A DNA stretch of 63,110 nt, counting the filler, from Craspedostauros australis (Eukaryota): NCBI GenBank assembly GCA_030167865.1. It is 9 parts of 9 records of this genome, joined end to end, with 100 filler letters (N's around TTAATTAATTAA, not from the genome) between each part and the next. Parts side by side here need not be neighbours in the genome. Positions count along the whole stretch, not along the records: positions 24,217 to 29,697 come from JALAGF010005601.1; 8 more parts are not named here. One strand, 5' to 3'. Shown here piece by piece: positions 21,500-63,110 of the stretch. Below the pieces are notes generated by a model. It saw only the letters and a program-made list of their open reading frames with translations. It did not search any database and was not told where the DNA came from. A program made the translations under genes and the position numbers. Every line of letters begins with the position of its first letter. Positions within the stretch are counted from its first letter, which is position 1.

Positions 21500-24116
21500 G
21501 ATCAACATTGAGAACATCCTTCGCATTTTCGCTTTCGCGAAAGAACGGCAAATCGACCAAGCAACCGATTGGGCAGCCATTAACGAGTTCACTACAACGA
21601 CCGGGTATGAGGTACGAACCATCAAGACTCCTGTTGCCAGCAAGGCAACCCAAATGTGATTGAAACTCGCGATGAAGGAAGCCACCAATCGTGAACTCGC
21701 CGAGGCAATGAGCTGCAAGGTTGTGGTACACTCACCAAGACGCCCACTGGAAGTACGCCGATCGCCATCAATGCCAACCAGATGGAAGTATGACAAGTTG
21801 CCCTGCTAGAGGCGGAGCCATTCAGCAGACTCAACATCNAATGGTACCAGTGGAAGACCGACTTCCACCGCCAGCTGGTCATGACCAGATACGCGGCATA
21901 CATGAAGGAGGAGAGACCAAATGACTACTGCAAGGATGTCGACACCCAGTTCTACGCAGTGCTCAACTCAAAGANGTGCAAAGGACACGCTAACTACATG
22001 GTCCTCGCGGAAAGAGACAGCGGTCATGCAGCCTTCCAGGCCCTCATCCGCACATACGAATCCACTGAGAACAGAGCCGACATTGTGGCAACAGAGGAAG
22101 ACAAACTGTCCAATCTTGTCTACAATGGATCTGGACCGTTCAGCGCGTTCGTCAATGACTTCTCCATATCTGTTCAGCCAATAGACGACAACGGAAAGGC
22201 AATGCGCGACAAGCAGAAGATTGCAAGAGTCTTCTTCAACATTCACGATGAGCGATTCACCAGTACGGTCTCTCGCCTCCAAGAGACGGACGAGTCCTTC
22301 AATTGGGTCTGCGAGACTCTCATGAAGCACAACAAGGTCCTCTCCAACGCGGAGATCGACAGATCTCCACGGCGCAATCAACGCGCGCACCAGAAGGACG
22401 GNCAAACGGACCGCAAGCGACCGTTTGAAGCTACATCCGGGGATCGCAAGAAACCGTCGATGTACCAACTTCCAGATATTGTATTCAGAAGCCGTCTGAC
22501 CCCAGCACAAGTGTTTGTGGTGGAATCCTTGCGTCACTTCCGCGAGACAGGAGAACTCATCAGCGAGGAGACATTCAAGCGCAACAAACCCGCTGAGTTC
22601 GCGAAGACCCAGGANNNNNNNNNNNNNNNNNNNNNNNNNNNNNNNNNNNNNNNNNNNNNNNNNNNNNNNNNNNNNNNNNGATTCGGCAACAAGACCGATC
22701 GAACCAAGAAGTACAGACCATGTGACAACAGCTCCTGAAAACCAACAACAGGCGCTTCGCGCCAGCAGTTGGAGGTCATCACATGCATCAAGGACCAAGA
22801 CAGTGTGGACTTGATGCACGAAGCCGCGGAGAGCGGGCCAGGGCATACAACCCCGGATACGCTACGAGAGTCGCGTCCAAGAAGCGCTGACTCGCATATA
22901 GAGCACACAATTCGACGGGCAAGAGTAACGAATAGTAGCCATGGCTATATCATTCTAGACTCAGGCACGGACGGTGACATTGTTCATGAGTCTGGATGGG
23001 CAGTTGCCCAAAATCACCAGCAGCAGTTCCACCCCGAGGGGCGACAGTGGACTCGCGAATCAAGACGTTTCCAATGGTTGACGCGGAGGCAGCGTACAAG
23101 CCGCCAGAAGGCGGAGTGATCCTCATCAAGGCACATTATGTGGCTCTCAACAAGCATCCATGGCAGATGGAGTCGCTGTTCAATACACACCACATGCGCA
23201 CGTCCGACATCAGCGTCTGCGATTGACTTCGACAACACGATGGGCAGCAACGGATAACGTCTGGCGACATCAGCATCCTGCTGGCCAATCACGACAGCAA
23301 TACCCTGTGCATCTCAATTCGTAAACCGACAGCTTGCGAGCTAACTCAAACTAAGAATATTACTATATGCAACAGACACAGACGCCTTCGGAGATCCCAC
23401 ACCAGTGGTGACTTCAACGAGGTCTTCTGGCATCTCCCACAACAGGTGGTCGAGAAAACGAAAGCAGCATCGACCCAACTGGCCGATACTCCCATCAATG
23501 CGGAGTCAAGACTCATCCCAAGGCAGTACTGTGCGCAGCAAGCGGGCGCGCTACAGCCACACTGAATCAAGGGAAGAGTGGAAACTGATCTATTCTTCTC
23601 CACGGTCCCATCCATTTGACACCACAAGTGCTTCCAGCTCTTTGCACACGGCGAATCCAAATTCATCTGGGCAAAGCCGCTCCGACGAGAGGCGATGGCG
23701 CCAAGGGCGCTCACCGATTTCATTGTGCAGGTCAGGGCACCTGACCTACTCTTCTTGGACTACTCACAGGTCCAAGCCGTCAAAGAATGGAAGGCTGTGG
23801 CGATGCGGTACATGATCGAGCACTCCTTCACTGCTCCCATGAATCAGAATCAGAACCGAGCGGAGCGGCCGATCGGCGACATCAAGCGACATGCATACAA
23901 ATTGCTTTGGGCGGAGTCCGTGCCACTCACCTTCTGGTGCTACACGGTACAACACGCCATCGATGTATGGAACTACATGGCAAACGAGAGCATTCAATGG
24001 AAGAATTCCATTGAACTGCTCCACAGGAACACTCTGGACATCTCCATGTTCAGGTTCACGTTCTTTCAACAGGTCTGGTATTTCGTGCCAATGACCAAGT
24101 TTCCACATCACCCATT
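21500..24116 (+). mobile_element. Degenerate Ty1/copia (CoDi-like) gag-protease-integrase region, a different family from 24217-29697
   Basis: Gag-like SGHAAFQALIRTYE; protease ILDSGTDG; integrase VETDLFFS, APDLLFLD, QNQNRAERPIGDIK and PLTFWCY. Several stops and frameshifts. Confidence 0.82.
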
Positions 24117-24217
24117 NNNNNNNNNNNNNNNNNNNNNNNNNNNNNNNNNNNNNNNNNNNNTTAATTAATTAANNNNNNNNNNNNNNNNNNNNNNNNNNNN
24201 NNNNNNNNNNNNNNNNC

Positions 24218-24373
24218 AAGATCAAGGGAAACCAGAACATCGCCGACATCCTCACGAAATTCCTTCCACGGTCGGTTTTCTGGGACCTCATCCAACCACT
24301 ATTGTTCTGGAAGGGCAACACCGATCCCACCCACACAAGTGACTGCGAAAAGATACGTTTCGGGGAGTATTAG
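24218..24373 (+). CDS. C-terminus of copia pol (RNase H)
   Basis: KIKGNQNIADILTKFL...LLFWKG...RFGEY*. The ORF reads through the PPT (GGGGAG, 24362-24367) and stops inside the LTR. Confidence 0.85.
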   Translation, partial: KIKGNQNIADILTKFLPRSVFWDLIQPLLFWKGNTDPTHTSDCEKIRFGEY

Positions 24374-24900
24374 CACAACGCTTTATTCACCTGATTCGTT
24401 TTCTGATTAGTCTATCCTGGTATGTGCTGAAACGATGCTTTACTCCGACACATGATTTTCGGCATAAGAGGGACACACTAGGGAGAACATCAGAGATTNN
24501 NNNNNNNNNNNNNNNNNNNNNNNNNNNNNNNCCAATTCGACCTGATATACTTCCCAACTAAACCTGAAATGACAACACACTCGATGACCTCAAGCATCAT
24601 CATGGAATGTGGAATCGACAGAGCCATGGAACGGTGATGAGTGACGTCGACACAGAAGACATCATCGCCACATCATGGGTCATCTCCACATCAGAACAAG
24701 ATCGGATTCGAGGTGCAATGACTGAGAGCTGACCTTGAAGACAGCAACATGAGATACAACTCAATGAAGATAACATAAGAACTAGAAGTCACTCAACCCA
24801 AACAGTGTCTTCACTCACCAGCTTGTCACCCTCGTCCTGAAAGACTTGATCTCTCTTGAAGGACTCGTGTGATTTCGCTGTGTACGATAACGAGATAACA
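24368..24900 (+). repeat. CoDi LTR with TA...CA termini
   Basis: Follows the PPT, starts TATTAGCAC and ends GAGATAACA. Homologous to 42749-43273 and 60626-61171. Confidence 0.9.
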
Positions 24901-24922
24901 GATTAACAGTCGCAAGCACTAC
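24901..24922 (+). promoter_or_regulatory. Primer-binding site complementary to the 5' half (about nt 19-40) of tRNA-Asn(GUU)
   Basis: The reverse complement GTAGTGCTTGCGACTGTTAATC reads as D-arm 3' strand plus anticodon arm TGCGA-CT-GTT-AA-TC. Confidence 0.75.
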
Positions 24923-25055
24923 GTCCTGACCTGACTGAGTGAACCCCCCTCCAACCCACCGAGCTGATACCATCAGCAACGAACCAACTGCATCACGTGA
25001 CGACGTGAAGCAAGAACCGAACAAGAACAAGAGCCTTCCAAGGCAGCGCACATGA

Positions 25056-25208: not shown

Positions 25209-28200
25209 ATGACAGAACCCACCGACCCCATCACNNNNNNNNNNNNNNNNNNNNNNNNNNNNNNNNNNNNNNNNNNNNNNNNNNNNNNNNNNNNNNNNNN
25301 NNNNNNNNNNNNNNNNNNNGTTGACGACCTCACCTTCCTCACCAAGGAAGACCTCGACGGTCTTCATCGCGACATCACTCCCACCACGGGAGACCCATAC
25401 TCATGCCGATTGACTGCATTGCACATTCGCAAGATCCTCGCACTCCCAATGTGGTATGACGCGCAAGCTGGCGACGGCGACTCCGTCTGGCTTGGCCTGA
25501 ATGCTGCGAGGCTCCAGAGCTTCATGAAAGCCGAACTCAAGAAACGCGTGGAAGCCTCCACACCGACACCCGAACCCACCATGTCGTCCATGGTGACACC
25601 ACCACCACCACCTGAACCTGTCTCTGATGGAGCCGCTGCCTTCGACAAGGGNATCAAGCGGAACCTCAGCGACTATCCGATCCTGAAGAGCGANGACCAG
25701 TTCATGGTCTTNGACCGACGTCTNCGAGCCACCGCTGCAGCGCACGGTGTGAAGAACGTCGTAGACCCCGAGTACCTCCCGACCCAAGATGAGTCTGAGC
25801 TGTTCGACAAGCAGCGCACCTTCCTCTTCTACGTCTTGACCCACTGTCTCAGGACCACGAAGAGCCGCAACTGTCTCCAAGCATACGCCGACGACGAGAA
25901 CGGTCATGGGGTGTATACCATGCTCCGTGAAGAGTATGCAACCGGCGTAGCTGCAGCCAACAAGGCCCAACTGATCCAGGAGGAGATCCGAAACCTCAAG
26001 CTGAACCACTCCTGGAACGGCAGCCGCGAAGCCTTCNTGAACAGCTGGCTCAGCAAGATCAACGACCTNGAAGAGATNCAGGATGCNCCTGTCTCTGAGG
26101 ACTGGAAGCTNCAGTGGCTCAAGGAGGCCATCACCCCTGATGCTGACCTCTTCCGTTCCCTTGACGACGCCGATGCTCTCCAGAGCAACTTGGCGTTGGC
26201 GACAGGAAAGACCAACTTCAGGCTGGACTTCGATGCCTTCCTTGGCGTTGTTCGCAGATCCGCACAGCGCAACGATCTCCGCGTCCCACGCAACAAGACC
26301 AAGCGTAGGGTCAACAACACAAGCAAGGACGCAAGCAACAACAAGAACAAGAGCACGAACAAGCGAATCCCAGACAACGAATGGAAACAAATGACCTGGG
26401 ATCAGAAGAAGGCCCACATGNNNNNNNNNNNNNNNNNNNNNNNNNNNNNNNNNNNNNNNNNNNNNNNNNNGCAGCCAACAAGGCCCAACTGATCCAGGAG
26501 GAGATCCGAAACCTCAAGCTGAACCACTCCTGGAACGGCAGCCGCGAAGCCTTCATGAACAGCTGGCTCAGCAAGATCAACGACCTTGAAGAGATTCAGG
26601 ATGCGCCTGTCTCTGAGGACTGGAAGCTCCAGTGGCTCAAGGAGGCCATCACCCCTGATGCTGACCTCTTCCGTTCCCTTGACGACGCCGATGCTCTCCA
26701 GAGCAACTTGGCGTTGGCGACAGGAAAGACCAACTTCAGGCTGGACTTCGATGCCTTCCTTGGCGTTGTTCGCAGATCCGCACAGCGCAACGATCTCCGC
26801 GTCCCACGCAACAAGACCAAGCGTAGGGTCAACAACACAAGCAAGGACGCAAGCAACAACAAGAACAAGAGCACGAACAAGCGAATCCCAGACAACGAAT
26901 GGAAACAAATGACCTGGGATCAGAAGAAGGCCCACATGCAGTCCAAGGGTACTTGGGATCCCAAGTACACCAGGGATGCATCGAACAGACAGGCCAACAA
27001 GACATCCACCGCTGGCAATGGGGGAGGTGGGCAAACCAAGTCCGCCTCGACCTCCGGCAACGCCGGTTCTGACGAACTCCCCGGCGATGCCATCAAGCGC
27101 ATGCTGGCCAATGCCACGACCAACACCAACACTTCCAACGAAGTCACCATCCAGGGCAAGGTCTACCGTGCTGTCCAGGCCACAGTCCTGCAATACAGCT
27201 TCAACAAGACTGATGTTGCGAAGTCCGGTTCCCTAATCGACAGCGGTGCGAACGGAGGATTGGCAGGCGATGATGTGACTATCATCAGCCGCACCAACCA
27301 TACCGCCGACATCAGCGGAATTGGAGACACCGCAATCGTCAACCTGGACATTGGAACGGTCGCTGGACTCGTCATGTCCACTGAGGGACCTATCATTGCG
27401 AAGTTCCACCAATACGCCCTCTATGGCAAGGGCAAGACGATTCACTCGACGAATCAGCTCGGTGCCTTCGGTCTCGATGTCAACGAGCGTCCTCGCGAAC
27501 TCCCCGGAGGGAGACAGACAATCGTCGTGCCTGATGGGCATGTGATCCCTCTCTCCATCCGACAGGGCCTATCCTACATGGACATGAGGCCTCCCACACG
27601 CAGGGAGATTGACACGTACCCTCACGTGGACTTCACTGCCGACGAGGAGTGGGACCCATCCACTCTCGACCACGAGTTCACCTTGCTGGACGGGACCTCC
27701 GATGGTGCCCCAGATGACGGCGTCCACTCACCGGACTCCATCGAAGTGTTCACCAGTGAGACCAATGCCCCACAGCAGGGCGCTATCACTCGTGCGAAAC
27801 CGACGATCGACTATGAGGCCCTCCGTCCGTACTTCGGATGGATCCCGGCCAGAAGAGTCCAAGACACTCTCAAGTGCACGTCCCAATGGTACCGCACCTC
27901 CGAGCGGTTCACCATGAGAAAGCACTTCAAGACCAGATTCCCTGCCGCGAACGTGGACAGACTCCACGAGACCGTTGCCATGGACACGTTGTTCTCTGAC
28001 ACACCTGCACACGACGATGGTGTGCCAGGCCATGGTGGCAGCACGATGATGCAAGTATACGTGGCCGTGGATTCTCGCTTCACCGCAGGATTCCCCATGA
28101 CATCGGAGAAGCAAGTTGCTTCCACTCTCCAAGACTTCATCCGGCGTCATGGAGCTCCTGACCTCCTGATGTCCGATAACGCAAAATCCGAAATCGGATT

Positions 28201-29697
28201 CAAGGTACAAGACATCCTCCGACAGTATTCCATCGCTGATCATCAGAGCGAACCGGAGCACCAGCACCAGAACGCCGCAGAGAGGCGTATCCAAGACATC
28301 AAGCGCATGACGAACGGCATCATGGACAGGACGGGCACACCTGCTCGCTTCTGGCTCATATGCANNNNNNNNNNNNNNNNNNNNNNNNNNNNNNNNNNNN
28401 NNNNNNNNNNNNNNNNNNNNNNNNNNNNNNNNNNNNNNNNNNNNNNNNNNNNNGATGTGAGCAAGTTCCTTGCCTACCGTTGGTGGCAACCGGTGTACTA
28501 CCGTGTGGAGAAACCTGGCTTTCCCAGCCAGTCCAAAGAACGAAAAGGGAGGTGGGCCGGACCCTGCCTCCACAAGGGTGACGAACTGACCTTCTGGGTG
28601 TTGGACGATGACACCCAACAGCTCCTCCCTCGATCCTCGATCCGTGCAGCCGACGAGCACGGCTCCCNNNNNNNNNNNNNNNNNNNNNNNNNNNNNNNNN
28701 NNNNNNNNNNNNNNNNNAGAGGCGTATCCAAGACATCAAGCGCATGACGAACGGCATCATGGACAGGACGGGCACACCTGCTCGCTTCTGGCTCATATGC
28801 ATCATGTATGTCATTGTGCTCTTCAATCACTTGGCTCAACGCACGGCAGGAAACGTCACGCCGATGCAGGCAGCCTACGGACACCGTCCTGATGTGAGCA
28901 AGTTCCTTGCCTACCGTTGGTGGCAACCGGTGTACTACCGTGTGGAGAAACCTGGCTTTCCCAGCCAGTCCAAANNNNNNNNNNNNNNNNNNNNNNNNNN
29001 NNNNNNNNNNNNNNNNNNNNNNNNGTTCCTTGCCTACCGTTGGTGGCAACCGGTGTACTACCGTGTGGAGAAACCTGGCTTTCCCAGCCAGTCCAAAGAA
29101 CGAAAAGGGAGGTGGGCCGGACCCTGCCTCCACAAGGGTGACGAACTGACCTTCTGGGTGTTGGACGATGACACCCAACAGCTCCTCCCTCGATCCTCGA
29201 TCCGTGCAGCCGACGAGCACGGCTCCCGCAACCTGCGNGTCGACTTTCCCCTGGCCGACGTTGGGGAGGAAGACGGCTCGGACACGAACCCACCTGATGA
29301 TGGGGAGCTTGACGACGACGTCCCAGTGCCTGATGGAATGCAACCAGTTGTTCATTCCCTCGGAGACGCCGTTCTTTTCGCTTCTGCGGAGTCCGATCCT
29401 GGAACGACGGACATGGCAAGAGTCTCCATCCCTCGATTCACACCAGAGGATCTCATCGGCAAGACCTTCCTGTACGACCGTGACGGACAGAGAGTCAAGG
29501 CCGAAGTCATCCAACGCGTCAACGATGCCGATGCTGCGAACCACCAGCGAATCAAGATGTTGCTCGCCTTCGACGATGGAGCCACCAACGAACTCATCTC
29601 CTACGTCCAGCTATCCGACATCATCGAACAGCAGCTCGAACGCAACGAAGACGACGAAGACGGAGTATGGGGATTCCAAGGCATCATCGGCCACGAA
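25209..29697 (+). mobile_element. CoDi Ty1/copia gag-pol (gag, protease, integrase), 3'-partial, gapped assembly
   Basis: ATG at 25209; protease LIDSGANGGLAG; integrase D-D-E in VAMDTLFS, LMSDNAKSE and QNAAERRIQ; no stops visible outside gap-flanking overlaps. Confidence 0.93.
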
Positions 29698-29799
29698 NNN
29701 NNNNNNNNNNNNNNNNNNNNNNNNNNNNNNNNNNNNNNNNNTTAATTAATTAANNNNNNNNNNNNNNNNNNNNNNNNNNNNNNNNNNNNNNNNNNNNAG

Positions 29800-32700
29800 C
29801 TCGCCACGCACTACCGGCAGCACTGCCTGGACAGCTTCGCGTTCTTCGTCTGCGGCAAGTTCGATCTGCATCAAATGGAGGAGCCCTACGCCGGCATCCG
29901 TAGTGCGATGGGGGAGCTCATGGAACAGATCAAGTTGCTGCCGCCCAACGACGTCGTCGGCGCAACCATGGACGATCCAAGGAGGGTCTCGCGCGTGCAT
30001 CAGGCGCTGGTCCGCAATCTGTCGTCCAGCGAGCTGAGGACGCTGCACAAGATCGTCCCTGGTATGTACAAATGGATGACGGGCGAAGATGCCGTCACCG
30101 TCGGCACGCGGCAAAGCAAATGTGCGGACCTCACCAGCAGGGATGCAACCAGCGACGATGTCAACAACAGCAATGTCAACAACAGCAATAATGATGACAA
30201 TAGCGACACTGCAGCCATCATCACGAATACGGAGCTGGTTGGCAGTAACTCCATGATCCAGCAGAAGTCGCTTGCAACCCTATCGATAGGGTCCGACGAT
30301 GAGAGGAATCCTGCCGCGGTGGAGGGATACAAGGAGAAGTCCGACAGGATCAAGCACACGCTCAAGCGGTTCCTGCGGATCATTTGCCAACACAGCCCGC
30401 TTGTGCTCATGATGGATGACATCCAATGGGCCGACAAGGCGTCGCTAGATCTGATCGAAATGTGGACGCTGGATGGTGAAATCCCGTCCTTGATGATCGT
30501 GGGATGCTTCAGATACAACGAGCTGGAGCAGAATGAATCGCTGCAAGGCATGATCGACACTCTCGAGAACTTGAAGCGAGAGCGGGCCATCCGCATCATC
30601 AACATCCATATGAGCGACCTACCGCAGCACAGCGTTCGGCAGATCCTCGTTGAGATCCTGCTGCCGGACAAGGATGACGATGTCAACGGCCTCGCGGATA
30701 TCGTCCATCGCAAGACGGGCGGCAACATCTTCTTCGTCAAGCAGTTTCTGGAATCGTTGGTCGATGATGATCTGCTGTGGTTTGATGAGGTTGGTGGGAT
30801 GAAGTGGCTCTGGGAGGAACGCAAGATCATCGCCGAATCGTTGGCCACGGACAACATTGTGGATCTGATGAAGCACAAGCTGCATCGCGTTGATGATGCT
30901 CACCATGTACTCCCGATTGCAGCGTGCCTCGGATGCACGTTTTCGCGCAAGAGGTTGATGCTTGTGATTCGGGCATTTTCGATCCATTCCGATCACAGGG
31001 TGTTCTTTCGAGATCTGCTGATTGAGGATGACGCAGCGCAGCCCAAATCGGTTGGTGCCGAACCAACACGGAAGCAACGGCGGCGGCAAAGTGTCGATCT
31101 CACATCGCATAAGAGCATACAAAAGATCCTCGATACCTGCGAACGCGAAGGGCTCATCGAGCAACATTCCCAACATCAAACCAAGCGCGCCAAGTCGAAA
31201 ACCAAGACCGAGAGGGCGCGAGCGGCACCAAACCAAGCGCGAAACGATGATGATCGATGCACCTTCATCCACGACAAGATCCAAGAGGCAGCATTGGCGT
31301 TGGTACCCCAAGACAAGATGTCTGAGCTGCAGCATAGGGTTGGTGACATCCTGCTCTCCTCCTTCTCCGGGGGCAAGATGGAGGATCATGACGTCTACAT
31401 GGTCGCGGGCCTCATCAACACGAGGCTTGACCTGATTCCAGCCACGGCAGAGCAATCCAACCGCCGCATGAGGATCGCCATGCTCAACTACAAGACGGCC
31501 CAGCTCGCCGTGGAGTGCGCCGCGTTTCAAGCTGCGTTGCGGTACTTCGCAACGGCCATGCAGATGCTGCCTACCAATCATTGGAAGAGCCATATCGCCG
31601 AGAGCTTGGATATCTACGCCTCGGCAGCTGAGTGCGCATACCTCATCAATGACTCCAACAAGGCCAAGGAGTACTGCTCGGCCGTCCTATCGCTTGAGTG
31701 CCCTCTGCTTCACAAGGTCCGAACATATCATATCTTACTAGAAGTCCTATTCATGGAATCTCAAGCACACAAGGCGGTCAAGACGCTACCAACATGCATC
31801 AACCTGCTCAGCATGCTTGGTTGCGAACTGCCCAAGAGCAGTTTCAGCAGAAAGATGCGACTCATCTTTGGCCTGTCGAAGATGAAGCGAGTGGCATCAA
31901 AATGGACCGTGGAATCTTTTCGAAGCATGCCAGCGTCACAGGATCCGACGCAAATCGCCATCGTCAAGACCCTCAACAAGTCAATCGTCATCGCCTTCGT
32001 CCTCGAACCGGACCTATTTCCTTTGATCATCCTCGAGTGCGTACGCAGGACCTTGAAGTACGGAATCATGCCATACTCGGCACCTGCTTTTAGTTGCTTG
32101 GCCGTACTCGTAGGGTACTTCATGGGAGACTTCGCCACAGCAGTCAAGATTTGCAAGGTTGCTCTCGCCATAACAGATCGCGAATCAAACCAAGTTTGCA
32201 AATGCCAGGTGATGTACACTGCTTGCCTGGGCACCATGCACTGGGTCAGACCTCTGGGGGAGATACCAGCGCTTTTCTGGGAGGCATACGAGCTGGGCAT
32301 GGCCTGCGGTGACGTCGACTCGGCCATCCGGGCTCTCATGTACTATTGGCAAACGAGATTCTACATCGGAGTCCCGCTGCCTCAGCTCGATGAGGACATG
32401 CTGAAGTACTCGAAGGTCATGGAAGACTTTCGGAGGGCGGACACAAGAAGCATCATCAACGTGACTTGGCAGTTAATGCAGAACTTGCGCGGTCTCTCGG
32501 ACAATGGCATCAAGCTGAAGGGAGACATGTTCGACGAAGATGCCTTCTTCCGGAATGCCACCGAGGAAAACGACCAGTTCGTGTCGCTTTTGGTGATGTC
32601 ATGTCGGCCAACGCTGGGCGTTTTCCTCGGCGAGTACGAGTACGGAGCTGCGGCATCGGTGAAAATCTTCGATGAGGAGCTGAAGGTGTTTGGTGGATGG

Positions 32701-33228
32701 TTCTTCCTGCCGCTTGCCGCGTGCTATTCCGGGGTCTGCTGCTACGCCACCTCCCACAGCACATCCAACAAGGCCCACGCGAAGCGATATCGCAAATTTG
32801 CTGACAAATGCCGAAAACAGCTGCATGTATGGGCAGACAAGGGCAATCCAAACTGCGACCACAGACTCGCCCTCCTGGAGGCGGAGCACAAGATGTTGCG
32901 ATCGAAGTACGACTTTGCCCTCTTCAAGTTCAGGAGTGTCATCGAGATGACCGACAAGCTCGGATGCATCCATGAACAAGCCTTGGCGAATGAGCGGCTG
33001 TCAGAGTGCTTGGTGAGAATGGGCAAGAGAGACGTCGCTCTTCTGGCCATGGCGGAAGCCATCAGGCTGTACGAGGAGTGGGGTGCAATGAAAAAGGTTG
33101 AGAAGCTGAGGTTGGCATGCGAGAAGATGCGACAGGGGGCACGGGCTGATGGTGTCGCTGTTTCGGTTGGTGGGGATACTGGTACAGTGCCGTTCGCGGC
33201 AGGTTCGACAGGCACGGCAAGTGCGTGA
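29800..33228 (+). CDS. STAND-class/AAA_16-type ATPase with TPR-like helical region, 5'-partial
   Basis: FVCGKFD...EPYAG, Walker B LVLMMDDIQWAD, KTGGNIFFV, FIHDKIQEAA, EQALANER and YEEWGAMKKV. The frame is open to the contig edge, so Walker A is missing. Confidence 0.88.
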   Translation, partial: LATHYRQHCLDSFAFFVCGKFDLHQMEEPYAGIRSAMGELMEQIKLLPPNDVVGATMDDPRRVSRVHQALVRNLSSSELRTLHKIVPGMYKWMTGEDAVTVGTRQSKCADLTSRDATSDDVNNSNVNNSNNDDNSDTAAIITNTELVGSNSMIQQKSLATLSIGSDDERNPAAVEGYKEKSDRIKHTLKRFLRIICQHSPLVLMMDDIQWADKASLDLIEMWTLDGEIPSLMIVGCFRYNELEQNESLQGMIDTLENLKRERAIRIINIHMSDLPQHSVRQILVEILLPDKDDDVNGLADIVHRKTGGNIFFVKQFLESLVDDDLLWFDEVGGMKWLWEERKIIAESLATDNIVDLMKHKLHRVDDAHHVLPIAACLGCTFSRKRLMLVIRAFSIHSDHRVFFRDLLIEDDAAQPKSVGAEPTRKQRRRQSVDLTSHKSIQKILDTCEREGLIEQHSQHQTKRAKSKTKTERARAAPNQARNDDDRCTFIHDKIQEAALALVPQDKMSELQHRVGDILLSSFSGGKMEDHDVYMVAGLINTRLDLIPATAEQSNRRMRIAMLNYKTAQLAVECAAFQAALRYFATAMQMLPTNHWKSHIAESLDIYASAAECAYLINDSNKAKEYCSAVLSLECPLLHKVRTYHILLEVLFMESQAHKAVKTLPTCINLLSMLGCELPKSSFSRKMRLIFGLSKMKRVASKWTVESFRSMPASQDPTQIAIVKTLNKSIVIAFVLEPDLFPLIILECVRRTLKYGIMPYSAPAFSCLAVLVGYFMGDFATAVKICKVALAITDRESNQVCKCQVMYTACLGTMHWVRPLGEIPALFWEAYELGMACGDVDSAIRALMYYWQTRFYIGVPLPQLDEDMLKYSKVMEDFRRADTRSIINVTWQLMQNLRGLSDNGIKLKGDMFDEDAFFRNATEENDQFVSLLVMSCRPTLGVFLGEYEYGAAASVKIFDEELKVFGGWFFLPLAACYSGVCCYATSHSTSNKAHAKRYRKFADKCRKQLHVWADKGNPNCDHRLALLEAEHKMLRSKYDFALFKFRSVIEMTDKLGCIHEQALANERLSECLVRMGKRDVALLAMAEAIRLYEEWGAMKKVEKLRLACEKMRQGARADGVAVSVGGDTGTVPFAAGSTGTASA

Positions 33229-34841
33229 AGCGGCAAGAAGTAAATAAGAAATATAATAGAGTAGACCGCTTGTGATCGAGTGTGATTATGTCGGTGGGTA
33301 GATGCGAGGAAGCATGAGTAGGCATGGTGCACCGAGCCATGGAATAGATGGTTTGACTGTGCCGTGCTGTGCTGCGATGTGTTCCTGAGGAGATTGGTGT
33401 GGTGCTATGCTGACGCAGTTCGTGGTTTCCAGTTCTTTTTTAAAATTGTGAGGAAGATCCGTATCCACGTTTGGATCAAAGCTGCGACACAATCACGACA
33501 TTCCAAGACACCAACACATAGCGAGATTGAGTGACGCGACGTCACAACACAGACACGTACGACCTCCACACCAACAAATGAGAACAAGAATCCAGAAGCA
33601 GAAGATCGTGGAAGGTGGAGACACCGCCAACAACAACCAAGAGACGTGCTCACCACAACACAGCACACTGCGCACACCATGGTCTCCGATTACCACAATA
33701 CTCACACAAACACGCTTCCCTCTACTCGTACGATTAATGGTACAAACACTTCCGAGATGATGGGCGCGGTCTTCGCTGCTTCAATTCCGCCGCCTGAACA
33801 AGTCAGACACCAACGTTGCGCGGAAAAGGGCAGGTGATGGACGAGAGAGCTGAAGTCGGACCACGCGTCATGTGGTCTCTTGGCGTCGACTTCGGTTCCG
33901 CGTATCTTTCGACAGATGATGCCAATCCCCAAGTCGTCAAATCGTCAAACTGGAGCACTGAGCAAGACTCTCACTCTGCGGCGAATTCGTCCGGACGTGC
34001 GGAAAGCAACGGCTTGGCAGCGAAGCATCACATGGCATCGGTGCGCTGCACAGGAGATGCATCGCTTTGGATGTCGGAGTAGTCGCCAACCCAGCCAAGT
34101 GGTTGGACCACACCAAGCCTCGCGCACTCCGCCGGCGGCGAGCGATCGCATGAAGCATAACCAAAGAGCAATTGGCGAGGCACATGGTTCTTGCTTCGTT
34201 GCTTGGCTCATCTGCTGCCCCAATAGCTGGCCCGAACAACAGAGCAACGGCTCACGTATAACAAGACACCAAGGGTATGACGACGAATATGAATGTGAAT
34301 CCAACGGAGGCTCCACGGCGCTGGCTCCACTCATATTCCATGCTCCTTGCCCACGTACATTCGCACTCACACTCACACTCACACTCACACTCATATTCAC
34401 ACTCATATTCACAGCCAGCTTGTCTCCCCTTCGCATCAACATGCCGCACAACTGAATTTAACAATGATCGAGTGACTGTTTGATGTCGTGGTAGTTCCGC
34501 TTGCAGCACTCTCTTCGGAACGCGCGAACCAACTTTCGTCTTTTCACTCAACGCGAGCGTTGGTGTTGAATCGGTGCATGACTTGGCATGTGCGATGCGG
34601 CATTGGACTGATAACTCGTCATCTCCTTCACCTTGACTGCACAGTGACTACTCATACAAGTCTCACTCCATACGAATCTGAAGGCTCTCTTGATAAAGTA
34701 ATATAGAGAATATCTAATTGCTCAGACTTTGTCATCTGCGCTACTCCACGGCATGATACGTTTGCTCCTCAAGCGCCGTTGCTGGAGTGAATCGCTTCAC
34801 TGCTCTTCCTCGGTGGTGCCGTCCACCTCAATCACTTCGGA

Positions 34842-35648
34842 TCAATTGGTTTTCATAGAGCTGGTTCTCGTCGAGCGGACGAAGTCCACCAGTGTCGCCC
34901 GATCCATGTATGCATCCACACGCGCGGTACCCTCGTCTTCGCTCAGCGCCTCGTACAACTCCATCATGGACATACGGTTGTACTCATCATCAATGCCATC
35001 ATTCTCCGCTCCCCCACTGCGGAGGACATGAATGCCTCCCATTAGTTGATGGTGTGGAATCAGCTTGCTGAAATCTGGATGAGTGAACATGTCTATCTCA
35101 CTTTCAGCTGCCATTCTCATTGCTCCATCCTTCAACACCAGGCAGTTGTGCTGATGAGCGAATATCAACACATCTATCATGGTGTCCTCTGTGAGATGCT
35201 TGCGGGCCAACTCTGCTTCAAGAACAAGCTTGAGTCGCCAGAAGCCGAACTCGTTGGCCACAAGGATCAGCTGTTGCAGATCGTCCTGTCCATTGAGTGT
35301 GGGAGTTGGTTGGTGAGAGGCATCTGTATCGTGGTGAGCGCCGATATGAGCTCCGACGTGAGCAGCAGCGTTGTCACGAACGCTGTCATGAAAGGATATC
35401 TCGCCTGTGTAGATGCATTGGAGGACATATCGGACGTGTTTTGGTTGAAGGTTGGGAAGAGGGATGGTTACTTGCATTGGGGGCGCGCCGTCCTCGGTGC
35501 CATCATTCGCGTGCTGATGTTGGATCCCATTGTCGATCAGTGTCTCAATGGATGGGAGGGTGACCATGAGGACTTTGGCGTTTGCCTTGATTGATTGTTG
35601 TTGGTCACCCTGCCCACACAAGAAGACGGCGTCTGTCCTGTTCTCGGT
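34842..35648 (-). CDS. BTB/POZ-BACK (SPOP-like) domain, in frame with the upstream ankyrin ORF but behind two TAA stops
   Basis: TDAVFLCG...IKANAKVL, VLQCIYTGE, LILVANEFG..LKLVLE and LIFAHQHNCLVLKD. Stops at 35778-35780 and 35649-35651. Confidence 0.78.
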   Translation of the reverse strand, partial: TENRTDAVFLCGQGDQQQSIKANAKVLMVTLPSIETLIDNGIQHQHANDGTEDGAPPMQVTIPLPNLQPKHVRYVLQCIYTGEISFHDSVRDNAAAHVGAHIGAHHDTDASHQPTPTLNGQDDLQQLILVANEFGFWRLKLVLEAELARKHLTEDTMIDVLIFAHQHNCLVLKDGAMRMAAESEIDMFTHPDFSKLIPHHQLMGGIHVLRSGGAENDGIDDEYNRMSMMELYEALSEDEGTARVDAYMDRATLVDFVRSTRTSSMKTN

Positions 35649-35777
35649 TTAGAAAGATCTGAGGCGGTCTTCTTCAATGCTGATGTTGGTCCTCTTGTGG
35701 CTACTGTGTTTGTGTTCATTCTCTTGCTTCTTTCGCTTCAACTGTTGTCTCAACTGTTCTTGTTGTTGTCCATTATC

Positions 35778-36698
35778 TTATTCCTTCAGTTTCAACTGTT
35801 GTCCCAACTGTTCTTGTGGTTGTTCATTCTCTTGCTCGTTTTGTTGCAAGCGTTGTTGCAGTTGTGGGTGAACTGAAGGCGAAAGTCCTCTAATGAGGGA
35901 CTCGATACACTCCAGTTTGCCGTTGCGGCATGCCCAATGAAGGGGAGTGTCATGATCGTTGTCTTCGCAGTTGGCGTCGGCCCCACATGATTTGATGAGG
36001 TACTCGATACACTCCAGGTGGCCGTTGCGACATGCAAAATGAAGGGGAGTCCAACCACGGTTGCTCTGGCAGTTGATGTTCGCCTCACATGATTGTATGA
36101 GGTACTTGACACACTCCAGCTTGTCATAAATGCATGCGTGATGAAGGGGAGTGAAACCATTGCTGGCTTTGCAGTTGATGTTCGCCTCACATGATTCGAT
36201 GAGGTATTTCACACACTCTAGCTGGCCGTTGCGGCATGCGTGATGAAGGGGAGTGAAACCATTGCTGGTTTTGCAGTTGGCATTGGCCCCACCTGATTCG
36301 ATGAGGTACTTCACACACTCCAGGTGGCCAAAAATGCATGCCAAATGAAGGGGAGTGGAATCATTGTCGGCTTTGCAGTTGATGTTCGCCCCACCTGATT
36401 CGATGAGGTACTTGACACACTCCAGGAGGCCGTTGCTGCATGCGTCATGAAGGGGAGTCCAACCATCGTAGTTTTTGCAATTGATGTTCGCCTCACATGA
36501 TTGGATGAGGTACTTCACACACTCCAGGTGGCCGTTCATGCATGCCCAATGAAGGGGAGTGGAACCAACCCAGTCTGCAACCTTGTTGACATCAACTCCT
36601 TCGTTCTTCGTCTTGTTCTGCTTCTTCCATGCCTTCAACACCGACAAGTTACCTGCACGGGCAGCATTAAGGAGTTCTTGGTACGTAACATTCGTCAT
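35778..36698 (-). CDS. Ankyrin-repeat protein, copy 1 (7 TPLH repeats of 34 aa)
   Basis: 102-bp repeats encoding GxTPLHxACxxGxLECVKYLI; ATG at 36698; coiled-coil-like tail. Confidence 0.9.
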   Translation of the reverse strand: MTNVTYQELLNAARAGNLSVLKAWKKQNKTKNEGVDVNKVADWVGSTPLHWACMNGHLECVKYLIQSCEANINCKNYDGWTPLHDACSNGLLECVKYLIESGGANINCKADNDSTPLHLACIFGHLECVKYLIESGGANANCKTSNGFTPLHHACRNGQLECVKYLIESCEANINCKASNGFTPLHHACIYDKLECVKYLIQSCEANINCQSNRGWTPLHFACRNGHLECIEYLIKSCGADANCEDNDHDTPLHWACRNGKLECIESLIRGLSPSVHPQLQQRLQQNEQENEQPQEQLGQQLKLKE

Positions 36699-37460
36699 TT
36701 TGAGAGGATAGTCGATGGTTGCTGGACGATTGACGTTGGACGTTGGATGATTGTCGTTGGATTGGCTGCCGAGGGAGTGTGTAGTCTGAGCTATCTATGG
36801 CAGAGATATCGATCGTGTGTCTTCAATACCTTGTATGAGTATTAGGATGAGAAATCTGAACTGTGTGATGAATAGTAGTATGCGTGGCAATTCGATGTCT
36901 GTTGTTGATGTGCTGGAGTGTGATGTTGAGTGGTGTTGTGTTGTTGTCTGTGTTTGCCTCCTCTTGATCACACCCTCTGGTTTGTGCGGTTTGGGTCCTT
37001 CTGTTCTCATCCATCACGGAAATGTACGACCCCATTCAGGACAATACGGTAGTATCCTGCCGATTTTTTATCGGACAACATGACTTTTTTGGCAAACGAT
37101 GTGGCGTGTTGTCCATTAGGGTCATATTTAATTAGCTAGCTTCTACGACACAAATACCTGGCTGACTTGTCTTCAGCGTGGACGAAAATGCTGACGTCAA
37201 CGACGGTCGATGTCAGACTGCGATGGTATCCAACGGTGTGGATGGTGATGTTGCGGCAGATTCGGTGTCGCGTTGATTCTTCACGATGTCGATGATTTGG
37301 CTCAGTTGTGTGTTTCCACCTTCGCGCATGTTGCGCAAAGAAGCACAGCGTTGGTGGTGGCACCCCTTCGCGTCAGCTGCAACACTCACGAATACCACAC
37401 AACACAGAATTGTATTATATAATGTCATGGAGCACAATGGCTTTTTCTTTGGTATGCAAA

Positions 37461-41700: not shown

Positions 41701-42748
41701 CAACCAACTTGTGTATGCCGCTGCTGTGTATTCTGGTGTATGCAGAGCCTGACAGGACTGTTTCCACGACTGTACCGAATGCTGATCGCTGGATGCACTA
41801 AAACACTGCCATCGGCGCGTGTGTAGAGGCAGAATCTTTGCCCAGTCGCCAACAGCCAAGCTCTCGCAACCTGGGCACATTCCATGCAGACATATAGATG
41901 CGGCGCATCGCTAGTCCCATGCATTGTTGCCTCCTCCTCATGCTTGTAGCCTGCGTTGCAACACATCTCACCTATTCTAGTCATTCAACGCTGCCAACAC
42001 GGATACCCTGGGCGGCCAAAGCGCTCTTGTGGTATGCTCGTTGCTCGTTGCATGTGACCGTCGCCGAGTTTCTGCCAAGTATTTGAATGGATTGACTGAT
42101 GACAATCGTGAGCCAAAAGAATCGATTCTGATGGTGCAGAGGCCATCAGCAATGAACTGCGACCGTGCTCATGACATACCATTTCACTGTTGCCATTGCC
42201 CTCGTCATGGCGCATTCGACGTGTTCCATTCTCCAATGATGCAGGTTGGGCATGAAGCCCGACGTGCAGATTTGCATCAGCAATCTGGCCACCACACATA
42301 TGCGAATGAGCTTGGTTGTGATGTGTTTTCCTCAACTCTCGTGTTGGTTGTACTGCATCTTCTTTCAGCTGTCTATCACTGTGGCGAACTCCTCGCGCAA
42401 TGGACACCACAGCTGGTGCTTGAGCTTTGTTCTCCTGATGAGGTGGGGCCAGAGTTTAATAGAGATGGAGGGATTCACAATGACAGATGGGAGGATAGAC
42501 TCGAACAGCAGTTGCAAATCTCGCCGGATTCGCTTGTAGGATGGCCAGTCAATCATGAGAGCCTTCATTTCCGTTCGGTGCGCTTACACCAACTACCTTG
42601 GCCCCATGTGTNNNNNNNNNNNNNNNNNNNNNNNNNNNNNNNNNNNNNNNNNNNNNNNNNNNNNNNNNNNNNNNNNNNNNNNNNNNNNNNNNNNNNNNNN
42701 NNNNNNNNNNNNNNNNNNNNNNNNNNNNNNNNNTCGTTGCTTTCAGCT

Positions 42749-43273
42749 TATTAGCACACTGCTTTATTCACCTGATACATTTTCTGATTAGTCCGTCCTG
42801 GTATGTGCTGAAACGTCGTTTCCTCCAGACACATGTTTATTGGCATAAGGGACACATTAGAGAACATCAGAGATTTGGTCTGGCCACCACCCAGCAATCA
42901 TGTGACACCAAGTTTGACTTGATCTACTTCCCAACTAAACCTGAAGTGACACCACCTTCAACGACCTCAAGATTCATCATGGAATGTGGAATCGACAGAG
43001 CCATGGAATGGTGATGAGTGACGTCGATACAGGAGACGTCATTGCCACATCATGGGTCATCTCCACATCAGAACAAGATGGCAAAGATGCATGACCGAGA
43101 GCTGTCCTTGAACGCAGCAACATGAGATACAACTCAATGAAGATAACATAGATTCAGAAGTCACTCTACCCAATCAGTGCCTTTGTTACACCAGCTTATC
43201 ACCACCTTCCTGAAAGACTTGATCTCTCTTGACGGATTTGTGTGATTTCGCTGTGTACAATAACAGGATACCA
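42749..43273 (+). mobile_element. Solo CoDi LTR
   Basis: TATTAGCAC...GGATACCA, 525 bp, 5-bp TSD CAGCT (42744-42748 and 43274-43278); homologous to 24368-24900. Confidence 0.9.
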
Positions 43274-44824
43274 CAGCTCCTCCACAGGCTGTTCTGACTC
43301 TTGAAGGTGGGCAGAGGTGTTCGGATGCTCTTGCACATGTGTGTGGATGGTCTTGCTGGACTCATGAACACAACCACAGATGACCCGTCCGGATCCTTCG
43401 AGATGGTACATAACGTTTTTGGGAATTTGCTCTGTGTTGATTGTTGTTGCTGAGCCGAGGCTGCTTCATCTGGAAGGAGAAAAAGTTCAAAGAGGATAGG
43501 CTTGTTAGGCTTGGTGCTTTGAAGATGGTGCTGGACAAGGGGCAAAGGAGGGAGGATTCGAATTCATCTTCCATGCTGCGACCATTGAGGTTGGGATCAG
43601 CAGGGAAGATGTGAGCTGATGCATCCTGGCAGTTCACATGGAAGATGGCATGACCAGGGGTCTGTGTGAAATGGAATAACACTGTCCCTGATAGTTTATC
43701 ATTGTGCACCTGGGACGGAAAGTCATTGCACAAGTTGCTGTTCAAGGAAATCGCCTCCTTGGCAATGATAGGCGTCTGCATTCGTTCCCTGCCACAACCT
43801 TGTGGAAATTCTACCGACATATGCCAATGAGCATCGCGGACAGTGCCAACGTTCTGATTGCCCATGGACCAATTTCAAAGGTTGTACATGGGGGAGAATC
43901 CAAATAGCAGTGAGATCTTGCCATGGTCACAAGGTCACAACCATGTTGGCTGTGGAGGCTGGGACCCAGTTCGCTCAAATCCGGCCAACTTGGTGTTGCA
44001 AGCCAGTTCAAAGCCGTTTCGATTGGCACTCCTTCCTTGTGGTTGTTGGAATCATGATGATATCACCAGTTGCAGGAATATTAGACCTTGTTTTGACATC
44101 TGGTGTCCTGAGCGTATATTGTGCATGGCCACTGGCCACTGCTGAAATAATGGTGGCAGGATGAAGAGGTGTGGCTGCAAGGAACCTTGCACAATGCCTC
44201 CTGCCTCCTCTTCTTGTTCCCGTTCCGCTGCTGTTGGAGTTGGCACGCCCTCTGTTGCGGATCGAATTGGTACTGCTGATCCTGATGCATTTAAGGATCC
44301 TGGTGCAGCCAAAGATATCAGGATTTGTACTAACGAAGGCACACAGTTTATGCTGGAACCTGTCTTCTGTTGACACCAATGGCACAATAGCCAGCAACTC
44401 TCTCCAGTTTTGTACAGACTGCACAAAAGGGCGCATGGTTGATGTCTTGGCATGCTCTTTGCAACAGGAGTAGATGAGATGATGCTGCTACTGCTGCTAC
44501 TCAATCCTATTGGTTCTTCTCCAGCAACCTCCACTGTTCTGATGTCTGTGCATGTTCCAAGGATGTTGGTGGCTGGAGGCTTTGGATGCAGTCGTCATGA
44601 TGGCCATGTTGTCTCTTGTGGCCACCTGCTTGCCTGCTGATGGCTGGATGGTTGGATGGATGGAGAGATGGATGGAGGGATGGACAACGCCATCTATTCG
44701 TGTATCGTGCAAGGCCACATGGGATGCTATGAAAAGCATGGACCCGGCCTGGTAGAAGTATGATGGGTCTGTACATGTATGGGAGAGCAGAATTGATGTG
44801 AGGTGCGTCTGTGGATGGATCTTT

Positions 44825-45349
44825 TAATAGAGCTAAACTAATACCCATCTTAGAGAGAGACTACGAATCATCCGACCCGTCAGTGTTCCAGTAGATCGAA
44901 TCAATACTTCACCGGCCCCCACGTTTGGGGACAGATCCAGAACATTGAAGCAAATCTTTGGAACCCGTGTCAAGGAACCAGTGGGGTTCCGATAACCAAG
45001 TTTCTGACACCCACCATCGCCAAAACGCTGACACAGGGAAACGGTGCCCCAGCAACGCACATCATCGCACATTGTCTCTCACGGAACTCAGCCATTGGAT
45101 CTCAACTCACGGTACATGGGTTACATGACCCATACACACTGTCACTCAGGACACCACAGGAGATCCTCCCCACAGGGAAGAACCATAGCACTAATCTCAT
45201 AATCCGCACGTTTCTTCACCATCTACCAGTATTCTCAATTGACTACTTGTGGAACAGAAGACTCACGTTCGGACCGCTTGCCAATGAAGCCTCTGCCCAA
45301 AGCTATCAACATCCAACAAGACAACAGCCATTACGTTTGGGCTCTATTA
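44825..45349. mobile_element. 525-bp insertion with TA...TA ends (solo LTR or MITE)
   Basis: Ends TAATAGAGC and GCTCTATTA; TSD TCTTT. The empty site is seen in the paralogue at ~58643-58662. Confidence 0.88.
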
Positions 45350-60625: not shown

Positions 60626-61171
60626 TATTAGCACAACGCTTTATTCACCTGATTCGTTTTCTGATTAGTCTGTCCTTGTATGTGCTGAAACGATGCTTTC
60701 CTCAGACACATGATTTTCGGCATGAGGGACACACTAGAGAGAACATCAGAGATTCAGTCTGGCCACCACCCGGCAAACATGTGATGTCCAATTCAACCTG
60801 ATATACTTCCCAACTAAACCTGAAATGACAACACACCCGACGACCTCAAGCATCATCAATGGAATGTGGAATCGACAGANNNNNNNNNNNNNNNNNNNNN
60901 NNNNNNNNNNNNNNNNNNNNNNNNNNNNNGAAGACATCATCGCCACATCATGGGTCATCTCCACATCAGAACAAGATCGCAGAGGTGCAATGACCGAGAG
61001 CTGACCTTGAAGATAGCAACACGAGATACAACTCAATGAAGATAACATAGAACCAGAAGTCACTCAACCCAAACAGTGTCTTCACTCACCAGCTTGTCAC
61101 CCTCGTCCTGAAAGACTTGATCTCTCTTGAAGGACTCGTGTGATTTCGCTGTGTACGATAACGAGATAACA
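60626..61171 (+). repeat. 5' LTR of a second CoDi copy; PBS at 61172-61193
   Basis: TATTAGCAC...GAGATAACA followed by GATTAACAGTCGCAAGCACTAC; expected TSD GATAA. Confidence 0.9.
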
Positions 61172-61373
61172 GATTAACAGTCGCAAGCACTACGTCCTGA
61201 CCTGACTGAGTGAACCCCTCTCCAAACCACCGAGCTGATCACATCAGCAACGAACCAACTGCATCACATGACGACGTGAAGCAAGAACCGAACAACAACA
61301 AGAGCCTTTCAAGGCAGCGCACCCGAACACACCGAGCACAGCGTATCCGCTTCTCCGTGACGAACCGAACAAG

Positions 61374-63110
61374 ATGACAGAATCCACCGACCCCATCACC
61401 GTACTGAACCACGTCCTCAAGGCCGTGGGTATCTACGACGACTCCGACCATCGCCGCGTTATCATCGACGCAGCGGTGGAGAACGTTGACGACCTCACCT
61501 TCCTCACCAAGGAAGACCTCGACGGTCTTCATCGCGACATCACTCCCACCTCGGGAGACACATACTCATGCCGATTGACCGCGTTGCACATTCGCAAGAT
61601 CCTCGCACTCCCAATGTGGTATGACGCGCAAGCTGGCGACGGCGAATCCGTCTGGCTTGACCTGAACGCTGCGAGGCTCCAGACCTTCATGAGAGCTGAA
61701 CTCAAGAAGCGCGTGGATGCCTCCATGCCGACACCCGAACCCACCATGTCATCCATGGTGACACCACCACCACCACCTGAACCTGTCTCTGATGGAGCCG
61801 CTGCCTTCGACAAGGGCATCAAGCGGAACCTCAGCGACTATCCGATCCTGAAGAGCGANGANCAGTTCATGNTCTTCGACCGACGTCTCCGAGCCACCGC
61901 TGCAGCGCACGGTGTGAAGAACGTCGTAGACCCCGAGTACCTCCCGACCCAAGACGAGGCTGACCTGTTCGACAAACAGCGCACCTTCCTCTTCTACGTC
62001 TTGACCCACTGCCTCAGGACCACGAAGAGCCGCAACTGTCTCCAGGCATACGCCGATGACGAGAACGGTCATGGGGTGTATACCATGCTCCGTGAGGAGT
62101 ACGCGACCGGAGTAGCCGCAGCCAACAAGGCCCAGCTGATCCAGGAGGAGATCCGGAACCTCAAGCTGAACCACTCCTGGAACAGCAGCCGCGAAGCCTT
62201 CGTGAACAGCTGGCTCAGCAAGATCAACGACCTCGAGGAGATCCAGGATGCCCCTGTCTCTGAGGACTGGAAGCTCCAGTGGCTCAAGGAAGCCATCTCC
62301 CCTGATGCTGATCTCTTCCGTTCCCTTGACGACGCCGATGCTCTTCAGAGCAACTTGGCGTTGGCGACAGGAAAGGCCGACTTCAGACTGGACTTCGATG
62401 CCTTCCTTGGAGTTGTTCGCAGATCCGCACAGCGCAACGATCTCCGCGTCCCACGCAACAAGACCAAGCATAGGGTCAACAACACAAGCAAGGACGCAAG
62501 CAACAACGAGAACAAGACCAACCAATCCAAGAACAAGAACACGAACAAGAGAATCCCAGACAACGAATGGAAGCAAATGACATGGGATCAGAAGAAGGCC
62601 CACATGCAATCCAAGGGTACTTGGGATGCCAAGTACACCAGGGATACATCGAACAGGCAGGCCAACAAGACATCCGCCACTGGCAATGGGGGTGGTGGGC
62701 AAGCTAAGTCCACCTCGACCTCAGGCAGCGCCGGTTCTGACGAACTCCCCGGCGATGCCATCAAGCGTATGCTGGCCAATGCCACGACCAACACCAACAC
62801 TTCTGACGAAGTCACCATCCAGGGCAAGGTCTACCGAGCTGTTCAGGCCACAGTCCTGCAATACAGCTTCAACAAGACCGATGTTGCGAAGTCCGGTTCC
62901 CTGATTGACAGCGGTGCGAATGGAGGATTGGCAGGCGAAGATGTGACTATCATCAGCCGTACCAACCATACCGCCGACATCAGCGGGATTGGAGACACCG
63001 CAATCGTCAACCTGGACATCGGAACAGTTGCTGGACTCGTCATGTCCACCGAGGGACCTATCATCGCGAAGTTCCACCAATACGCCCTCTATGGCAAGGG
63101 CAAGACGATT
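61374..63110 (+). mobile_element. CoDi gag-protease ORF running off the window
   Basis: MTESTDPITVLNHVLK...LIDSGANGGLAG; near-identical to 25209 onward. Absent from the ORF track because it has no stop. Confidence 0.92.

Follow-up and report, generated by a model that had tools for sequence, protein, structure and literature searches.

A Copia element and its LTRs

The window, by which we mean the whole stretch of 63,110 nucleotides analysed here, filler included, contains parts of a Ty1/copia element, present as copies A and C of a single family, together with a solo LTR, B. The corresponding features are given below; A2 denotes a profile, with its alignment, obtained from 22 relative polyproteins and mapped onto the window.

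23629..24108, + strand: integrase fragment from an upstream copy of the same Copia family (A2 HMM positions 843-1003, i-Evalue 1.2e-29), with N runs before the next part
24215..24343, + strand: C-terminus of pol (RNase H end), found immediately before LTR A (A2 HMM 1793-1835, i-Evalue 1.1e-14)
24362..24367, + strand: polypurine-tract-like GGGGAG, read from the sequence between the end of pol and the start of LTR A
24368..24900, + strand: LTR copy A, TATTAG...ATAACA, 533 bp long with 33 N counted in; it acts as 5' LTR for the copy with gag-PR-INT
25317..29700, + strand: gag, protease (LIDSGANGG) and integrase of copy A (A2 HMM, profile positions 40-1183)
42744..42748, + strand: CAGCT, left target-site duplication of solo LTR B
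42749..43273, + strand: solo LTR B, 525 bp
43274..43278, + strand: CAGCT, right target-site duplication of solo LTR B
60626..61171, + strand: LTR copy C, 5' LTR of the second copy, with an upstream flank unrelated to those of A and B
61374..63110, + strand: gag-protease open frame of copy C, from ATG to the window end (A2 HMM 6-617, i-Evalue 2.7e-118)

The LTRs were delimited by self-comparison and three-way alignment, which revealed a repeat of about 530 bp, present in three copies with sharp ends. All three copies start with TATTAGCACA, while the last bases are GAGATAACA (ATAACA) in A and C, and GGATACCA (ATACCA) in B. LTRs A and C align with 449 matches, 13 mismatches and 7 gap positions, A and B with 431 matches, 59 mismatches and 12 gap positions. 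The sequences upstream of A, B and C are all different from each other. Since CAGCT is found on both sides of B, this copy is a solo LTR bordered by a 5-bp target-site duplication, and both LTR ends are thereby fixed to the base; the boundary proposed in the initial annotation of this DNA coincides with the one defined in this way. The termini of the element are TA...CA instead of TG...CA: the LTRs at 24368, 42749 and 60626 all start with TA, and TATTA...TAACA forms an imperfect terminal inverted repeat. Copia LTRs starting with TA have been described, as in the tomato element TARE1 (accessible text of PMC3701649).

The domain order observed in the window is gag-protease-integrase, plus a separate C-terminus of pol, whose translation, ending in NIADILTKFLPRSVFWDLIQPLLFWKGNT, agrees with the C-terminus of the A2 consensus. 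In the translated sequences the protease motif LIDSGANGG is followed by an integrase-like D, D, E region. No reverse transcriptase (RT) is present in the window, copy A ending at an N run and copy C running off the window end. A Pfam search of the window ORFs, even at E 0.1, returned no retroelement domain; the integrase and protease of this element are too diverged for the Pfam models. Assignment to Copia comes from the relatives: residues 270-730 of P0002, corresponding to the PR-INT part, detect 108 longer relatives, with E from 2e-160 to 6e-55, and the Copia RT domain RVT_2 (PF07727) is found in 107 of them, which, along with the succession of PR and INT in the window, upholds the classification as Copia given in the initial annotation. 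PF07727 was confirmed on P0005, P0056 and P0090, and rve precedes RVT_2 in the latter two. Two of the relatives are named from diatoms, Mayamaea and Entomoneis. A search for relatives in viral contigs produced 51 pattern matches, none of which was confirmed by tblastn. Between integrase and RT, the A2 consensus features a conserved YNVLVxWEDGSxTxEPL stretch with a chromodomain-like look, for which no Pfam match was obtained on P0005, P0056 and P0090 at E 0.01.

The many N runs of the window, and the exact duplicates flanking gaps, are those of a draft assembly. Three pairs of duplicates, 98.9-100% identical, are located at 50-N gaps (25953-26420 and 26471-26938; 28465-28667 and 29025-29227; 56361-56571 and 56701-56911) and look like assembly artefacts. 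The reading frames of copy A are broken by duplicates of this kind: its HMM segments, 25317-26381, 26471-28660, 28717-28977 and 29023-29700, are separated by N runs and gap-flanking duplicates. The end of pol and the polypurine tract lie before LTR A, and gag lies after it, an arrangement implying either tandem copies sharing one LTR or a collapsed or permuted assembly; LTR A is at once the 3' LTR of the upstream copy and the 5' LTR of the gag copy.

The sequence adjoining the LTR and its recurrence in other Copia families

Immediately 3' of GAGATAACA, the terminal bases of the 533-546 bp LTR, both element copies carry the 22-mer GATTAACAGTCGCAAGCACTAC. It occurs exactly twice in the window (24901-24922 and 61172-61193), both times on the + strand, and in A as in C it begins at the very next base after the LTR end. 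It can be divided as follows, the division being dictated by the comparison with other families described below.

24901..24918, + strand: candidate primer-binding site core GATTAACAGTCGCAAGCA, adjoining LTR A; the same 18 bases occur in at least five other Copia families
24919..24922, + strand: CTAC, bases 19-22 of the 22-mer; they fit G19-U20-A21-G22 of common tRNA-Asn genes and are not conserved in other families
61172..61189, + strand: candidate primer-binding site core of copy C; the 22-mer extends to 61193

None of 100 dinucleotide shuffles contained a match to the 22-mer at up to 3 mismatches. Since copies A and C belong to one family, their two occurrences cannot be counted as separate evidence. 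The initial annotation had noticed a motif repeated at 24901 and 61172, right after the LTR-terminal CA, and had remarked on the lack of a canonical TGG; the positions are confirmed, and TGG is indeed absent throughout 24880-24990. Searching 24860-24980 with Rfam cmscan, at E up to 10, gave no tRNA or other match, as expected if the site corresponds to a tRNA fragment only, and ARAGORN detected no tRNA gene in the whole window. A text search of the literature with four 13-base strings from the site or its complement identified no paper containing them.

Metagenome contigs were scanned for the exact 18-base complement, and 24 loci were found. Twelve of them could be assigned, by means of the A2 profile, to five Copia families with protein evidence. 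In five loci (L005, L007, L008, L021 and L023) the motif is preceded, at a distance of 160-630 nt, by the C-terminus of pol in the same orientation (E from 2e-145 to 2e-12); in L005, AGGGGAG soon follows the pol stop. In four others (L006, L009, L012 and L020) gag is found about 300 nt downstream (E from 7e-7 to 7e-4). L004 lies at the opposite end of the L005 contig, 7736 bases apart, and is identical to L005 at 1572 of 1573 bases: this arrangement is a circular permutation, as would be expected if identical LTRs had collapsed in assembly. The last two loci, L011 and L019, were placed in the L009 family by DNA similarity. The profile was needed to detect these proteins, since tblastn of the gag, PR and INT sequences of the window against the 24 loci gave nothing at 1e-3.

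Five of the remaining loci are chance matches in bacterial DNA: four are found in bacterial-type genes (L002 and L024, histidine kinase; L014, NUDIX; L017, amylase), and one, L003, shares its downstream flank with L126, a contig of a bacterial genome. The other seven (L001, L010, L013, L015, L016, L018 and L022) feature neither Copia protein evidence nor a bacterial assignment; phmmer against 112 proteins returned nothing for any of them, and when L013, L018 and L022 were compared with the A2 profile by hhalign, the probabilities were 1.2%, 2.6% and 0.2%, respectively. As a measure of the rarity of the motif, prokaryote genomes amounting to 596 billion bases contain the 18-mer just 5 times.

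As the scan demanded all 18 bases, identity within the block was imposed, and the free observation is the lack of conservation outside of it. In a comparison of 12 representatives, mean pairwise identity over 30 nt flanks is 0.30 upstream and 0.26 downstream, and no conserved column adjoins the 18-mer. Likewise, blastn between families with the 18-mer masked (500 nt upstream, 300 nt downstream) found no similarity, and the C-termini of pol are only 41-58% identical between families. Conservation between families ends at base 18, and CTAC, which follows in the window, is found in no other family. An invariant 18-mer, located at the LTR-leader junction of elements which otherwise cannot be aligned, behaves like a site pairing with a host RNA, and these comparisons support a primer-binding role for the bases adjoining the LTR.

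A minor feature was noticed in the leader. Within the 40 nt following the site, 6 of the 12 representatives (L005, L013, L018, L021, L022 and L023) contain a complement of 5-6 bases to the last 8 site bases (TGCTT, GCTTG, CTTGC), which is missing from the element of the window. Shuffled sequences feature such a complement in 1.2 of 12 cases on average, and 0.05% of the shuffles reach 6, figures that refer to a motif picked after looking. It may correspond to a leader stem formed over part of the site.

Probable pairing with tRNA-Asn and alternative explanations

Read as its complement, the site contains C-T-GTT-A-A at the position of an anticodon loop, closed by two base pairs. A 17-base anticodon arm, composed of the 14 complement bases and 3 predicted ones, was therefore scanned in viral contigs, where it identified 97 loci; in these, 96 tRNA-Asn genes were called by ARAGORN. 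All 14 complement bases are identical to positions 27-40 of these 96 tRNA-Asn(GTT) genes, which are viral and not the host's; the anticodon-arm register of tRNA-Asn(GUU), first proposed in the initial annotation, is thus matched in real genes. Over the whole 22-mer complement, 45 of the 98 occurrences of the arm match at 20 of 22 bases in register, with mismatches at tRNA positions 23 and 26. The 18-mer is matched best, at 17 of 18 bases, by L111, called tRNA-Asn(gtt), on a viral contig; it is also the only called tRNA gene with T at position 23, while T at position 26, demanded by the site, is found in none of the 98 occurrences of the arm. All these figures refer to phage and giant-virus genes, which are not eukaryotic and not representative of diatoms. 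The exact 18-mer has no hit at all in the viral contigs and lies in no tRNA gene at any of the 24 metagenome loci or the 5 prokaryote loci, and the searchable supplements of PMC4247016 contain only a count row for Asn-GTT, with no sequence.

We consider it probable that the 18 bases GATTAACAGTCGCAAGCA are the minus-strand primer-binding site of a diatom-type Ty1/copia element, pairing with positions 23-40 of cytoplasmic tRNA-Asn(GUU), a reading which derives from sequence comparison; in kind, as a Copia primer site for a 3'-truncated tRNA-Asn, it is very probably right. The initial annotation had extended the match to tRNA positions 19-40: positions 23-40 are retained in the proposed register, while pairing with 19-22 is no more than putative, the facing CTAC not being conserved between families. 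On the tRNA, the pairing would span the anticodon arm and a portion of the D arm. A free 3' OH would be needed opposite G24901, and the primer would thus be a piece of tRNA-Asn whose last base is C40, on the 3' side of the anticodon stem: either the 5' "half" of the molecule or a shorter internal fragment with the same end. Its last 18 bases would pair with 24901-24918, and RT would extend it into U5, giving minus-strand strong-stop DNA; priming of this kind has been described for tRNA-iMet in copia and Ty5. We infer that the host tRNA-Asn carries U23-G24-C25-U26, and that a cut tRNA-Asn fragment exists and primes.

The sharp limit at 18 bases could depend on a feature of the tRNA which blocks plus-strand synthesis, or on a short primer. 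In retroviruses, an 18-base rule for primer sites is attributed to m1A58. A more specific version, in which the site facing tRNA-Asn 23-40 is fixed throughout the clade and its length is set by the primer, either by an RT block at position 22, analogous to the retroviral one, or by a short internal fragment in place of a 40-nt half, is put forward only tentatively, as a possibility which we rather doubt. This version would also predict a host tRNA-Asn that is out of the ordinary in having U at both 23 and 26.

The rarity of T at position 23, and its absence at position 26 in all 98 viral occurrences of the arm, might suggest that the primer is an RNA other than standard cytoplasmic tRNA-Asn, such as a variant or tRNA-like copy, an organellar tRNA-Asn or another small RNA, and the abrupt end of conservation after 18 bases would fit a short defined RNA as well. 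The tRNA genes compared are, however, viral and not representative of diatoms, and the anticodon-loop signature with its two closing pairs fits a normal tRNA; moreover, the Copia precedents given in the accessible texts of PMC6317226, PMC4139406 and PMC10886601 are all ordinary cytoplasmic tRNAs. We consider a non-standard primer RNA unlikely. It is very unlikely, in our opinion, that the 18-mer is a conserved cis element of the leader, involved in packaging, dimerisation or translation control, with an incidental likeness to tRNA-Asn and priming achieved otherwise. Such an element would be in keeping with the lack of the full 18-base complement in tRNA genes of the three collections scanned, and the complement to the last bases of the site, present within 40 nt in half of the representatives (6 of 12), hints at a local stem; yet a stem including the primer site is compatible with priming. 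In the window, furthermore, no base separates the site from the LTR, in other families the site sits at the junction of pol end, LTR and gag, and no alternative candidate primer site, neither a TGG nor a self-complement, is available. Were the 18-mer such a cis element, its agreement over 14 bases with 96 tRNA-Asn genes, in a register that makes sense, would be a coincidence.

The self-complement just mentioned would be required by self-priming of the Tf1 type, in which the 5' end of the transcript of the element itself base-pairs with the site. Certain LTR elements prime in this way, some plant Copia among them (accessible text of PMC6317226), but when LTRs A, B and C and the 378 nt that follow were searched for exact complements to the 22-mer, the longest measured 5 nt, at the low end of what shuffled LTRs offer (at least 5 nt in 498 of 500, at least 6 nt in 362 of 500). 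Families with unrelated LTRs have the same 18-mer, which self-priming does not predict, and this explanation is close to refuted.

Comparison with known elements and other features of the window

Drosophila copia and yeast Ty5 are elements of the kind for which the genus name Hemivirus is used. In both, a fragment of initiator tRNA-Met, internal or 5', serves as the primer (Kikuchi 1986 and Ke 1999, cited in the accessible text of PMC10886601). The element of the window resembles them in belonging to the Ty1/copia superfamily, in having its site directly after the 5' LTR, with no TGG, and in the complementarity of the site to an anticodon stem-loop, for which a 3'-truncated tRNA would be needed. 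It differs in its predicted tRNA, Asn(GUU) in place of iMet, and in its host, probably a diatom; the present case was derived from sequence comparison.

Similar sites have been reported in fungi and plants. According to the accessible text of PMC10886601, rust Copia elements and the non-autonomous Helenus elements feature anticodon-loop sites for tRNA-Tyr, Ile, Asp and iMet, and one fungal Helenus lineage has an anticodon-loop site for tRNA-Asn-GTT. The inferred mechanism, the tRNA in that one lineage and the 5-bp target-site duplications are shared with the present element, whereas those elements live in fungi, and the one that uses Asn is non-autonomous. In Candida, sites for internal tRNA-Arg(UCU) and tRNA-iMet regions are described (PMC4139406, accessible text), and in FunCo1 a site for an internal region of tRNA-Lys (PMC5445492, likewise). 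FunCo1 is thus a further case of an internal, non-initiator tRNA in Copia, and the layout of its site is that of the first 11 bases found here, with the complement of the anticodon in the middle; as for the other fungal Copia elements of this type, however, the tRNAs and the hosts differ, and the reported sites are shorter.

In plants, as far as the accessible text of PMC6317226 goes, half-molecule primers, tRNA-Met and tRNA-Ile, are restricted to certain Copia lineages, namely Osser, Bryco and Gymco-II (1/2 tRNA-Met) and Bianca (1/2 tRNA-Ile), while tRNA-Asn is found only among the tRNAs used by their 3' end, in 2% of the elements. Only Copia elements use half-tRNA primers, and a lineage can be recognised by the type of primer: here, as in those lineages, several related families have one site in common. 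The tRNA is a different one. The idea that all half-tRNA primers read ANN codons and carry t6A37 was considered, and fails because tRNA-Tyr and tRNA-Asp are among those reported in the accessible text of PMC10886601.

For the diatom CoDi Copia elements (PMC2806351), the connection lies in the polyprotein relatives from Mayamaea and Entomoneis. CoDi membership rests on RT phylogeny (PMC2806351), and the window contains no RT. The main text of the CoDi paper mentions neither tRNA nor primer-binding site, and a literature search covering neither subscription journals nor figure content found no paper on primer sites of diatom Copia.

The initial annotation had described tRNA-Asn as an unusual primer choice. 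It now appears less so, anticodon-loop priming by Ile, Tyr, Asp, Lys, Arg and Asn-GTT tRNAs having been published, as far as the accessible texts cited above report; by the same sources, the mechanism, and even the tRNA-Asn species, are already on record for other hosts, and the understanding of the mechanism is unchanged. What would be added is diatom-type Copia, as a lineage and a host group, to the retrotransposons that use a cut tRNA, and not the 3' end of a tRNA, as primer. Scans for primer-binding sites limited to tRNA 3' ends would miss a site of this type. One 18-mer marks several environmental Copia families, and annotation of algal genomes and metagenomes could use this exact signature to locate such elements and establish their orientation. 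The reading also makes definite predictions, namely the sequence of the host tRNA-Asn, including an unusual D arm, and a tRNA-Asn fragment ending at C40.

Various other features were noticed in the window. A duplicated segment, 78-85% identical, lies on the - strand at 34795-36954 and 52399-54634; it contains a BTB-domain ORF (34845-35648) and ankyrin-repeat ORFs (35781-36794 and 53253-54461) made of 102-bp tandem units. A second duplication, inverted and about 3 kb in size, relates 43588-46558 to 56909-59902 with 89-97% identity and some internal rearrangement. Right after the N run that ends copy A, an unrelated gene is found on the + strand (29746-33225), as an open frame of 1160 residues with a weak match to AAA_16 (STAND-type NTPase; E 2e-6, under the Pfam cut-off). 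Another open frame on the + strand, of 979 residues (1755-4691), contains a TLDc domain (E 2e-26).
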